Made by a program: the position numbers and the translations under genes | Assembly (NCBI RefSeq): GCF_054482525.1 | Contig: NZ_CM137006.1 | DNA: 64,000 nt | Strand: one strand, 5' to 3' | Shown: positions 3,926-21,210 of the stretch, one piece after another | Position numbering within the stretch: position 1 is the first letter of the stretch | Layout of the letters: every line of letters begins with the position of its first letter | The notes under the pieces: model-generated | Seen by the model: only the letters and a program-made list of their open reading frames with translations | Database searches by the model: none | Told to the model about the DNA's origin: nothing

Positions 3926-5887
3926 TTACCCTTTTCGCTTCGGCAATGTTTTCAGCAGCTCATCCGGACTTACGGATGCCACTACGCTTCCCGGTAACGG
4001 CATTTTCAGTATGTGATTTTTGATTTTGCCAATGACGTGCATCTCGCATGGGCGGCAATCAAACTTTAGCGTTAATACTTCATCGCCGTTAACCAGTTGC
4101 ATTGGCGTCGCCTTCCAGCTTTTGATATTGCCTTTCGCCTGTTTCGGGCACAGATTAAAGGCAAAGCGCAGACAATGCTTGGTGATCATCACCGGGACTT
4201 CGCCCTTCTCTTCATGTGCCTCATACGCCGCGTCAATCAGCTGCACACCATAGCGATGATAAAATTCACGCGCTTTCTGGTTGTATACGTTCGCGAGGAA
4301 ACTCAGATGCGTTTGCGGATAAACCGGCGCAGGATCAGCAACCGGTTTACGGCTGCCCCGCTGGTAACTGGCAAGACGTGCAGCATCCAGCATGTCGGCG
4401 GCTTCACGGCGGAACTGGTTTAACAGACTGTTTGATACAAACAGCGCACCCGGCAAATTAATTTGCACATCGCGGGCGTAATAGATGGTTTGCCCCAGTT
4501 TTGCCAGACCATCCTTTAGATTGTTCATTGCTTTTTCGGCGTTATTGGCTTCGTCGAAATGCCCGTCCAGCGTATGCGTGATGCTGACACCCTCTTCACT
4601 GGTGAGGGTCAGAATCAGTTGTTCCTGCCAGCCGCCCAGTTCAATGTCTACCGCCACCCGACGTTCGCTGGATGTTTTTGTCAGTGCCTGCTGCCAGTTA
4701 TGATCAAGATTACGGTTTAGTGGGTGATGCGGGCGAATTTTGTGCAACTCTGCTGGCATTTCATTGGGCCAGACGCGGTACTGATTTTCTCCGGTTTTCT
4801 CGACCGTATTGGCACGAAAGCCGACGACTTCACGTTTAATCATCACGTTCAGGCCATCGCCATTTGCCAGTGGTTCGGAAACGGCAACATCGAGATGATC
4901 TTTCGCCACTTTCAATACTTCACCCACCGGCAGGCCGATAAATTTCGGCGAATCGAACGCGCCAATATCGCCTTTACGGGCATTCACAAAATAATCTGTG
5001 CTACCACGGTTGAAAGTCTTTTCCGTCGATGGAACAAAGAAATGTTCAGTACGACCTGATGAAGCACGCGCCAGATCGCCACGTTCTTCAATAATGGCAT
5101 CCAGCATTTGGCGATAATGCGCGGTGATATTCTTCACGTAGCTCATATCTTTGTAACGCCCTTCAATCTTGAAGGAGCGTACGCCAGCATCAATCAGCGC
5201 GCCGAGGTTGGCAGTCTGATCGTTATCTTTCATCGACAGCAGATGTTTTTCATAGGAAACCACCCGCCCCTGATCGTCTTTCAATGTGTATGGCAAACGG
5301 CACGCCTGCGAGCAATCGCCACGGTTGGCGCTACGCCCTGTTTGCGCATGAGAAATGTAGCACTGACCCGAATAGGCCACGCACAGTGCGCCATGAATAA
5401 AGAATTCAATGGTCGCGTCCGTGGCCTGGTGAATCGCGCGGATCTGCTCAAGATTCAGCTCTCGCGCCAGCACAATCTGCGTAAAGCCAACATCAGAGAG
5501 GAACTTCGCTTTTTCGACTGTACGAATATCGCACTGCGTACTGGCGTGCAGTTCAATCGGCGGAATATCAAGTTCCAGAATCCCCATATCCTGAACAATC
5601 AGCGCATCGACGCCGGTCTGGTAGAGGTTGGTAATCAGCCGTTGCGCAGGTTCCAGCTCATCATCATGCAAAATGGTGTTAAGCGTGACAAAAATTTTTG
5701 CACCATAACGATGGGCAAACGGCACCAGTTCGGCAATATCTTTCAGGCTATTACTGGCATTATGACGGGCACCAAAACCAGGGCCGCCGATATAAACAGC
5801 ATCGGCACCGTGCAAAATAGCTTCGCGGGCAATGGCGGCATCGCGTGCCGGGCTTAACAGTTCAAGTCGATGAGAAGATACGGTCAC
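3926..5887 (-). CDS. ydcP: Peptidase U32-family protein (23S rRNA 5-hydroxycytidine synthase RlhA)
   Basis: Track ORF 3926..5929 (667 aa). The 653-aa form I recall for K-12 starts at the in-frame GTG at 5887 (VTVSSHRLELLSPARDAAIAREAILHGADAVYIGGPGF...). Confidence 0.85.
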   Translation of the reverse strand: MTVSSHRLELLSPARDAAIAREAILHGADAVYIGGPGFGARHNASNSLKDIAELVPFAHRYGAKIFVTLNTILHDDELEPAQRLITNLYQTGVDALIVQDMGILELDIPPIELHASTQCDIRTVEKAKFLSDVGFTQIVLARELNLEQIRAIHQATDATIEFFIHGALCVAYSGQCYISHAQTGRSANRGDCSQACRLPYTLKDDQGRVVSYEKHLLSMKDNDQTANLGALIDAGVRSFKIEGRYKDMSYVKNITAHYRQMLDAIIEERGDLARASSGRTEHFFVPSTEKTFNRGSTDYFVNARKGDIGAFDSPKFIGLPVGEVLKVAKDHLDVAVSEPLANGDGLNVMIKREVVGFRANTVEKTGENQYRVWPNEMPAELHKIRPHHPLNRNLDHNWQQALTKTSSERRVAVDIELGGWQEQLILTLTSEEGVSITHTLDGHFDEANNAEKAMNNLKDGLAKLGQTIYYARDVQINLPGALFVSNSLLNQFRREAADMLDAARLASYQRGSRKPVADPAPVYPQTHLSFLANVYNQKAREFYHRYGVQLIDAAYEAHEEKGEVPVMITKHCLRFAFNLCPKQAKGNIKSWKATPMQLVNGDEVLTLKFDCRPCEMHVIGKIKNHILKMPLPGSVVASVSPDELLKTLPKRKG

Positions 5888-8603: not shown

Positions 8604-8765
8604 AAGTCAATCATCAGTAGTTAAATTTCAGTGAGTTAAGCGGCTAAAAAACTTCGACTACTGTGATTAATTTCACATCCCTTCGATAAAAAATATGCTT
8701 ACCGAAAAGAAGAACAGTAAACCATCTCAGCGTGGGGAATTTTCACGCGCTTTGTTCTTACCGGA

Positions 8766-18518: not shown

Positions 18519-18744
18519 CGACCAAAAACCTCTTTGCGTCACATTTTTACAACAATTATGGCAGAGAAGAATAATGCCATTGGAATGAAGAGAGTAACGA
18601 ATGATTAAACTGGCTAAACCGAATGACGAAAAATTCTGGAAAACAGCACGCAATTTCGTCAGGTGATTATTTTCGTCCCTAAGGAAACCACATAGGATGC
18701 TCACGGGTGCCTGAGACTTTCTGTTTTCAGGCTAACCGGGAATC

Positions 18745-18810
18745 AGAAAGACGAAGGCCCCGACCGATATTTCTATCAACCGAGGCCAACGAATGAACCA
18801 AGCAATTCAG
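18745..18810 (-). ncRNA. sokB: SokB antisense RNA; approximate placement
   Basis: Placed by analogy with hok/sok architecture (Sok lies antisense to the hok leader / mok start). Ends not determined from sequence. Confidence 0.3.
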
Positions 18811-18850
18811 ATGTTAGCCTCTTACCCGCCATCCGGCAAGGAAAAAGGCT

Positions 18851-19000
<150 letters not shown>

Positions 19001-19071
19001 GGGCAAGCGCGGGGATTTTCCCCGCGCATCTGACTAGCGGATTCATTTTCTCATGGCACCCCTTTTACACT

Positions 19072-19245
19072 TCAGTTAGTGCATGTTTTTTTCGATGCAC
19101 TAATAGAACCATCATTACAGACAAATTTGCCGCCTGCCGTACAGTGTGAGACCCCCCCTTTCGAACCAGAACAGGGTTTGCGCCCGGCATCGGCATAAAA
19201 GGAAGCAAGCGCTCCCATAACCAAGATAAGTGCCAATTTTTTCAT
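19072..19245 (-). CDS. ydcA: Small secreted cysteine-rich protein
   Basis: Hand translation: MKKLALILVMGALASFYADAGRKPCSGSKGGVSHCTAGGKFVCNDGSISASKKTCTN (57 aa). Confidence 0.8.
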   Translation of the reverse strand: MKKLALILVMGALASFYADAGRKPCSGSKGGVSHCTAGGKFVCNDGSISASKKTCTN

Positions 19246-19415
19246 ATAACCTCCATGGTTTATCGAATCTTATGTTCGATTTGAACGTTATACGTTGGTT
19301 TATTTTGATACCGTTGATGAGATCAAAGATCGGGTGAATTGATTAAAAATAAGCCAGATGGACGTATGGGCAAGGATTATGGTTTTATTTGTCATACAAA
19401 TAAATATAATAGGCG

Positions 19416-19479
19416 CTTCCGATGTAGACCCGTATTCTTCGCCTGTACCACGGGTCGGTTTTAGTACAGGCGTTTTCTT
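19416..19479 (+). ncRNA. rydC: RydC small regulatory RNA (Hfq-dependent)
   Basis: cttccgatgtagacccgtattcttcgcctgtaccacgggtcggttttagtacaggcgttttctt matches my recollection of RydC including the 5' seed CUUCCGAUGUAGACCCGU; perfect TATAAT at 19405-19410 just upstream; ends in hairpin plus U-tract; convergent with cybB. Confidence 0.7.
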
Positions 19480-19489
19480 TAAATATCCT

Positions 19490-20020
19490 TCAGGAACGTT
19501 TACGCGGCATCATGCGTAGAAGTGTGTTGTCCTTCCAGAAATAGTGGTGTGCCAGTGCAGCCGCAGCGTGCAACCCGATGACAAAATATCCCAGATTCGC
19601 CAGCGTCTCATGCCACGACTTTAAGCTATCAACCCGTTCGAAATTGGCCTCTGATGCATAAGGCATCGTCATACCAAACGCAAACCACGGGTTACCCCGG
19701 TTATACATCATCACCAAACCAATCACTGGCAGCGCAATAAACAGGAGATAGATCACCAAATGTCCCAAATGCGCCAGTCCCGTCATCATCGGTTTTGGCT
19801 TAGGTATAATCGGCGGGGTTGGGTATTTCAGCCTTAACAAAAGACGAACCACCATCAGCACGAGAATTGTGATGCCACAGGAAACATGAATCATGTTGAT
19901 GAGTGGCCGATCGCTACGTGGGAAGAAACCACGAAACTCCATTGCGCAATACGCTGCGATAACCAGTAAAAAGACCAGCCAGTGAATGCTGATTTGTAAC
20001 CTTGAGTATTTATTTTCCAT
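19490..20020 (-). CDS. cybB: Cytochrome b561
   Basis: 176-aa form from the internal Met (MENKYSRLQISIHWLVFLLVIAAYCAMEFRGFF...); track ORF starts 12 codons upstream. Confidence 0.9.
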   Translation of the reverse strand: MENKYSRLQISIHWLVFLLVIAAYCAMEFRGFFPRSDRPLINMIHVSCGITILVLMVVRLLLRLKYPTPPIIPKPKPMMTGLAHLGHLVIYLLFIALPVIGLVMMYNRGNPWFAFGMTMPYASEANFERVDSLKSWHETLANLGYFVIGLHAAAALAHHYFWKDNTLLRMMPRKRS

Positions 20021-20208
20021 AACATTTCCTGCTTTAAAACAATTTGCCGTTAACATAACGAGCTTTTCTTAAAATTTCATTAAATATTGTTCACCCGTTT
20101 TCAGTACGTTACGTTTCACGGCAAGAATGTAGATTGCCCATCCCGCCATCCTGGTCTAAGCCTGGAAAGGATCAATTTTCATCCGAACGTTCCTGACAGG
20201 AGAAGACC

Positions 20209-21210
20209 ATGAGTAAAGTTGGTATTAACGGTTTTGGTCGTATCGGTCGACTGGTGTTGCGTCGATTACTTGAAGTCAAAAGCAACATAGACATTGTTGC
20301 TATTAATGATCTCACTTCCCCAAAAATTCTCGCCTACCTGCTGAAACATGATTCAAACTACGGACCGTTCCCCTGGAGCGTTGATTTTACGGAAGATTCA
20401 CTTATCGTTGATGGAAAAAGTATCGCGGTTTACGCCGAAAAAGAGGCTAAAAATATTCCATGGAAAGCGAAAGGCGCAGAAATCATTGTCGAATGTACTG
20501 GCTTTTATACCTCCGCCGAGAAATCGCAGGCGCACCTTGATGCTGGTGCGAAGAAGGTGTTGATTTCCGCCCCTGCCGGTGAAATGAAAACCATCGTTTA
20601 TAACGTCAATGACGACACACTGGATGGCAACGACACCATTGTTTCCGTGGCGTCATGCACCACTAACTGCCTTGCGCCGATGGCCAAAGCCTTGCATGAC
20701 AGTTTCGGGATAGAAGTCGGCACGATGACGACCATTCATGCCTATACCGGCACTCAGTCACTGGTGGATGGCCCGCGTGGTAAAGATCTACGCGCTTCAC
20801 GTGCAGCGGCAGAAAATATCATTCCCCACACTACAGGTGCGGCAAAAGCCATTGGTCTGGTGATCCCAGAACTGAGCGGCAAACTGAAAGGTCATGCGCA
20901 ACGCGTACCCGTGAAAACCGGTTCGGTGACTGAACTGGTGTCTATTCTTGGAAAAAAAGTGACTGCCGAAGAAGTGAACAACGCGCTTAAAAAGGCGACA
21001 AACAATAACGAGTCATTTGGTTATACCGATGAAGAAATAGTCTCTTCTGATATCATAGGCAGCCATTTCGGGTCGGTGTTTGATGCCACGCAAACCGAAA
21101 TTACCGCCGTGGGCGATTTACAACTGGTGAAAACGGTCGCCTGGTACGATAACGAATATGGCTTCGTCACGCAGCTTATTCGCACCCTCGAAAAATTCGC
21201 TAAACTCTGA
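20209..21210 (+). CDS. gapC: Glyceraldehyde-3-phosphate dehydrogenase C, intact reading frame
   Basis: Uninterrupted 333-aa [26 protein letters not shown]... with catalytic motif [10 protein letters not shown]. Confidence 0.9.

Follow-up and report, generated by a model that had tools for sequence, protein, structure and literature searches.

An intact rydC small RNA gene between ydcA and cybB of Escherichia coli, with a candidate YieP operator in its core promoter

RydC is a small RNA (sRNA) already described in E. coli. In K-12 MG1655 its gene (b4597; NC_000913.3 1491442..1491506, minus strand) lies between cybB and ydcA, and the RNA adopts a published H-type pseudoknot (PMC4337610, PMC3985669). 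This fold is unusual in that the knot is compact and the terminator stem is itself one of the knot helices (PMC4337610). In the crystal structure with Hfq, nucleotides U61, U62, C63 and U64 sit in the proximal channel of the protein, and the UU steps at nt 23-24 and 45-46 contact its rim (PMC4337610). Binding of RydC to its site in the long isoform of the cfa mRNA reportedly blocks RNase E and Rho (PMC11340327); csgD and yejABEF are also targets (PMC3985669). The sRNAs ArrS and CpxQ resemble RydC because they depend on Hfq, pair with the long cfa 5'UTR and modulate the access of RNase E and Rho (PMC11340327), whereas the sequences and loci of these and other 5'-seed Hfq sRNAs are unrelated to RydC. 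Transcription of rydC relies on a sigma-70 promoter published as a perfect -10 TATAAT with no obvious -35, and is repressed by YieP 20-fold in E. coli (measured with rydC'-lacZ) and 7.5-fold in Salmonella (PMC11340327). This repression has so far been demonstrated only genetically.

We analyzed a window of 64,000 nucleotides, the whole stretch of DNA taken from contig NZ_CM137006.1 (assembly GCF_054482525.1). The window comes from E. coli: 24 kb are 100% identical to strains SCU-102, 19KM1776 and PCN033, and there are two differences from 19KM1776 in the first 40 kb, with coinciding coordinates. When the entire window was scanned with Rfam, only two families exceeded their gathering thresholds, namely RydC (RF00505) and sok antitoxin (RF01794). 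The RydC match (19416..19479, + strand) scored 92.5 bits against a gathering score of 48 (E-value 5.2e-17) and covered positions 1-64 of the 64 in the model, with no truncation. An earlier reading made from the letters of the window, hereafter the sequence-only reading, had proposed RydC at this place, and the covariance model returned that identity at nearly twice the gathering score. The element starts at 19416 with CTTCCGATGT... (CTTCCGATGTAGACCC...) and its 3' end consists of GTACAGGCG followed by TTTTCTT. Its length is 64 nt according to Rfam and 65 nt according to the K-12 annotation, which corresponds to 19416..19480.

Comparison with K-12 leaves little room for another assignment. In pairwise alignment the gene is 100% identical to b4597. 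The two genomes also agree in the -10 hexamer, in the discriminator of 5 nt, in the 10 bp that separate rydC from cybB, and in having ydcA and cybB on either side. The order of genes (trg, sokB/hokB, ydcA, rydC, cybB, gapC, aldA) is that of K-12, on the other strand. Over the whole ydcA-cybB intergenic region the identity is 99%, with two SNPs in 255 aligned bp (T in the window and C in K-12 at 19295, G and A at 19391), both located between ydcA and rydC. The position given in the sequence-only reading, between ydcA and cybB and 10 bp from the stop codon of cybB on the opposite strand, agrees with the annotations and with K-12: the stop codon (19490..19492) reads TCA on the + strand and TGA on the - strand, and the gap spans 19480..19489. 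Judging by this identity, the element is almost certainly the known sRNA gene rydC, already described, and its biology adds nothing new. Using a 351-bp query around rydC, we found that 5415 of the 5426 complete E. coli genomes contain the locus. The region matched 5427 places in total, of which five are on records labelled as plasmids; mislabelling of the replicon or mobilisation of a chromosomal segment may explain them. The features of the locus are listed in Table 1.

Table 1. Features of the rydC locus in window coordinates
Feature	Coordinates	Strand	Evidence
ydcA (57 aa), divergent 5' neighbour	19072..19245	-	ORF list; K-12 ydcA b1419
Candidate YieP operator, 6-3-6 palindrome ATTTGTCATACAAAT, -29..-15, ending 3 bp before the -10	19387..19401	.	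motif match, conservation
-10 hexamer TATAAT of the rydC sigma-70 promoter (-11..-6)	19405..19410	+	sequence, conservation
rydC (RydC sRNA)	19416..19480	+	RF00505 full length; identical to b4597
5' seed, nt 1-11 single-stranded; cfa-pairing stretch, nt 3-13	19416..19428	+	homologue alignment, duplex folding
Pseudoknot helix 1, GACCCGU (19427..19433) with ACGGGUC (19450..19456)	19427..19456	+	Rfam consensus structure
Pseudoknot helix 2 = terminator stem, CGCCUGUAC (19440..19448) with GUACAGGCG (19464..19472)	19440..19472	+	MFE/centroid
3' U-rich tail UUUUCUU(U), terminator T-tract and Hfq proximal-face binding site	19473..19480	+	sequence; PMC4337610
cybB (cytochrome b561, 176 aa), convergent 3' neighbour	19490..20020	-	annotations and ORF list

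Unlike the K-12 annotation, the public annotation of the window lineage omits rydC. As the sequence-only reading had anticipated for annotation based on open reading frames (ORFs), the PGAP tables of PCN033 and 19KM1776 contain no feature between ydcA and cybB, and ydcA itself is listed as 'hypothetical protein'. A well-characterised regulator of membrane lipids through cfa, of curli through csgD and of peptide uptake through yejABEF is therefore absent from the RefSeq/PGAP tables, and analyses of such strains that start from gene lists overlook it. By analogy with the identical K-12 gene, for which Northern blots are available, a transcript of approximately 64 nt is expected from the + strand in this lineage.

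The sequence-only reading had described the RNA as a 5' seed plus a terminal hairpin with a U-tract. The terminator stem and the following UUUUCUUU are both present at the 3' end of rydC, but the RNA is not a simple seed-plus-hairpin, since the hairpin is helix 2 of the pseudoknot and its loop of 15 nt contains half of a second helix. In the proposed fold, helix 1 would join nt 12-18 with nt 35-41 and helix 2 nt 25-33 with nt 49-57, which would leave the first 11 nt free as the seed. Helix 2 has an energy of -13.8 kcal/mol and is the sole stem in nested folding (MFE and centroid); helix 1, folded alone, reaches -10.5 kcal/mol. The nested MFE of rydC is no better than that of shuffled sequences (z = -0.48). 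This value is uninformative because nested folding cannot model a pseudoknot, and the two helices were scored separately. Thermodynamics alone does not single out the rydC element.

We scanned one genome per species with an 18-mer and obtained 13 loci, nine of which were confirmed by Rfam as RydC. Three loci from metagenome-assembled genomes (L006, L009 and L015) contained no RydC according to Rfam and were put down to chance hits of a 17-base pattern in 298 Gb; in the S. diarizonae locus (L013), RydC is cut off by the end of the locus. Aligned with the window, the nine homologues yielded seven distinct sequences from Escherichia, Salmonella and Citrobacter. When the pseudoknot is written explicitly, 99.2% of the cells of this seven-sequence alignment pair. 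All nine pairs of helix 2 are 100% paired, and four of them show compensatory double changes across species (G-C/A-U, U-A/C-G, A-U/G-C and C-G/U-A). The covariation score is 0.258, compared to a shuffle mean of 0.128, and was reached by none of 500 shuffles. Sliding the helix register by one to three columns lowers the pairing to 26-44%.

Helix 1 behaves differently. Its seven core pairs can form in all sequences and never vary, and the search pattern fixed the 5' arm GACCCGU. Being invariant, this helix is neither supported nor contradicted by covariation; it is backed by published mutants and by the Hfq-RydC crystal structure (PMC4337610). In particular, the G37C/G39C mutants destabilise RydC in vivo (PMC4337610). 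The seed CUUCCGAUGU is identical to that of K-12 and invariant in the nine homologues, although it was contained in the search pattern, and the invariance of nt 1-18 in the same homologues is likewise partly forced by that pattern. Both UU steps (nt 23-24 and nt 45-46) are likewise invariant, and the U-tail is conserved. Hfq binding by the RydC of the window is predicted from the literature on the identical sequence, in which Hfq would hold the 3' U-tail and the UU steps of the loops. The pair A11-N42, which closes helix 1, is A·G in the allele of the window and K-12 and A-U in other lineages. In three Escherichia loci (L004, 2726..2789; L005, 1087..1150; L014, 735..798) RydC departs from the allele of the window and K-12 at three positions, nt 42 (G to U), nt 44 (U to G) and nt 58 (U to C), and its U42 restores the A11-U42 pair, lengthening helix 1.

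The same alignment bears on the possibility that the + strand encodes a small protein, as the six-frame list contains ORFs of 53 aa (19358..19519) and 41 aa (19339..19464) across this region. Indels of 1 and 2 nt in the homologues break any frame through the rydC element, and the substitutions are compensatory pairs in an RNA helix, not codon-like changes. Moreover, the region upstream of -30 where both ORFs begin is not conserved between genera, and the ORFs would run into cybB on the opposite strand. We consider a coding origin of the signal extremely improbable, and an RNA gene accounts for the pattern of change. Beyond the species level, RydC of Salmonella enterica and Citrobacter shares with the window the first 18 nt, helix 1, the UU steps, the U-tail, the topology of the pseudoknot, the -10 and the upstream palindrome. 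It differs in the four compensatory pairs of helix 2 and in loop indels of 1-2 nt. On the 5' side, ydcA (E. coli and Shigella) is replaced by STM1638 in Salmonella and by frmR in C. koseri; on the 3' side, most species have cybB (PMC11340327).

According to the proposed model, transcription of rydC would end at the intrinsic terminator made of helix 2 and the U-tract, 10 bp before the convergent stop codon of cybB. A scan for terminators misses this structure, whose 15-nt loop exceeds the 3-8 nt that the scan allows. The scan reports instead a 6-pair alternative at 19441..19455, which we regard as a chance candidate. The short distance between the stem and the cybB stop raises the question of whether the hairpin and U-tract are simply the 3' end of the cybB transcript, that is, a shared or bidirectional terminator with no separate RNA gene, and an A-rich run (AAGAAAA) does precede the stem on the - strand. 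On that strand, however, the stem is followed by AAGAAUACGGG and not by a U-tract, and the scan called no - strand terminator there. A cybB terminator would also leave unexplained the invariant seed, helix 1, the conserved -10, the upstream operator and the full-length match to the covariance model. In addition, rydC does not adjoin cybB in Klebsiella and Enterobacter (PMC11340327), and a primary transcript with its 5' end at the start of rydC has been mapped in K-12 and Salmonella, according to annotation and literature. We give almost no credence to the shared-terminator explanation and retain rydC as a gene with a terminator of its own.

In the model, rydC encodes a trans-acting sRNA dependent on Hfq, and one of its targets, cfa, was inspected in the same strain. 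Since cfa lies outside the window, we took its 290-nt leader from 19KM1776 and K-12 and folded it as a duplex with RydC nt 1-16. The stretch UCCGAUGUAGA (nt 3-13) pairs with UCUACGUCGGA at -109..-99 of the cfa 5'UTR, forming 11 bp with one G·U. K-12 and 19KM1776 give the same duplex, their leaders differing at -144 only. Its energy is -18.3 kcal/mol, compared to a mean of -12.1 kcal/mol for shuffled UTRs, and 7 of 500 shuffled UTRs were equally good. The exact complement of the 12-mer seed, allowing up to two mismatches, is absent from the K-12 cfa region; the true pairing is shifted to nt 3-13 and includes a G·U, and it emerged from duplex folding. At the sequence level, the validated cfa target site is intact in the same strain. 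Pairing of the seed with the long-isoform cfa mRNA at this site would shield it from RNase E and Rho and lead to more cyclopropane fatty acid synthase. From the literature, the seed would also repress csgD, yejABEF, trpE and pheA.

Transcription would start at 19416 from a sigma-70 promoter with a consensus -10 and no real -35. The perfect TATAAT recognised in the sequence-only reading is indeed present (19405..19410). Its final T precedes the 5' end of the RNA by 6 nt, and AGGCG (19411..19415) separates the hexamer from the start of rydC. This is the only TATAAT between 19300 and 19420, and the whole 64 kb contain three on the + strand and two on the - strand. The hexamer is kept in 10 of 11 aligned sequences and reads TATACT in C. 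koseri. The best candidates for a -35 match 2-3 of 6 positions and there is no TG extension. A sigma-70 consensus scan of 19000..20300 returned no promoters, because the rydC promoter has no -35. As the published promoter shares this property (PMC11340327), we did not count the empty scan against rydC.

Upstream of rydC, we aligned 80 nt from 11 loci of Escherichia, Salmonella and Citrobacter. Conservation starts abruptly at approximately -30 with the block of the palindrome, whose ACAAAT half-site is invariant in 11 of 11 sequences. The reverse complement of the palindrome, ATTTGTATGACAAAT, fits the YieP ChIP-exo motif atTTGTaTGAcaAAT (PMC7642389) at 15 of 15 positions. It is the only site of the window with no mismatch, the others found having three; the total of four sites with up to three mismatches is within the range expected by chance. 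The position of the palindrome in the core promoter suggests how repression may work. YieP, a repressor of the GntR/FadR type that according to the literature would normally keep rydC off, may bind 19387..19401, and a dimer that covers -29..-15 and ends 3 bp short of the -10 would block the access of RNA polymerase. We infer that YieP represses rydC through this candidate site by promoter occlusion. A study combining ChIP-exo and RNA-seq chose rydC and ydcA as candidate YieP target genes (PMC7642389). According to a J Bacteriol 2024 paper, one YieP ChIP-exo regulon lacked rydC, so direct binding of YieP at 19387..19401 remains putative. An operator at -29..-15 of rydC is apparently not stated explicitly in the RydC and YieP papers cited here. 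The exact correspondence between the published motif and the rydC core promoter provides a concrete candidate operator, together with a common natural variant.

This variant is the SNP at 19391 (-25), where the window has G (15 of 15 motif positions) and K-12 has A (14 of 15). We counted the two alleles with 41-nt queries centred on the SNP, for which megablast cannot cross from one allele to the other, so that the counts are lower bounds. The G allele is carried by 3995 or more of the 5426 complete E. coli genomes, including the window, and the A allele by 1239 or more, K-12 among them. Should the substitution alter the affinity of YieP, which we regard as possible but doubtful, basal RydC and the activation of cfa would vary among E. 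coli lineages, and measurements in K-12 would understate repression in most strains.

The perfect operator of the window strain, compared to 14 of 15 positions in K-12, could also mean that rydC is intact but silent in this lineage, with repression possibly tighter than in K-12 and never relieved. Wild-type K-12 yields no detectable RydC under laboratory conditions, and a Northern signal appears only in a yieP deletion (PMC11340327), and the literature names no signal that induces it. On the other hand, the RNA, the promoter, the operator and the cfa site are strictly conserved in approximately 5400 genomes and across several genera, which argues for continuing selection, and the repression of yieP by FnrS offers a route to derepression. 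Permanent silence is very unlikely, and we favour a functional rydC under YieP control.

The palindrome (19387..19401) sits between the divergent ydcA and rydC and could serve both. In C. koseri (L007, approximately 8630..8660) the operator arms are kept and the central triplet is reverse-complemented (GT-ATG-AC compared to GT-CAT-AC); in this rydC promoter the + strand equals the YieP consensus, next to the TATACT hexamer. The same C. koseri locus carries a fluoride riboswitch (RF01734, 50.2 bits) at 3981..4053 on the - strand, approximately 4.6 kb from rydC and unrelated to it.

Within the window, no recognisable intrinsic terminator follows the stop codon of cybB (19480..19492 and the - strand of 19416..19489), and read-through from cybB would run antisense through rydC. 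The second Rfam family, sok antitoxin, matches 18705..18856 on the + strand with 110.6 bits. This is the strand of the hokB/mokB mRNA, and the match ends at the ATG of hokB (18851). K-12 sokB maps to 18747..18803 on the - strand with 98% identity, which indicates that the model matches the leader of the hok mRNA and not the antisense RNA. Like rydC, sokB has no PGAP annotation in the window lineage. An ORF of 22 aa (18978..19046, - strand), antisense to the 3' end of hokB, is named yncP in K-12 and 'hypothetical protein' in the window lineage. Finally, gapC (20209..21210, + strand) is intact in the window and encodes a type I glyceraldehyde-3-phosphate dehydrogenase of 333 aa, whereas its K-12 counterpart (b4493) is a pseudogene.
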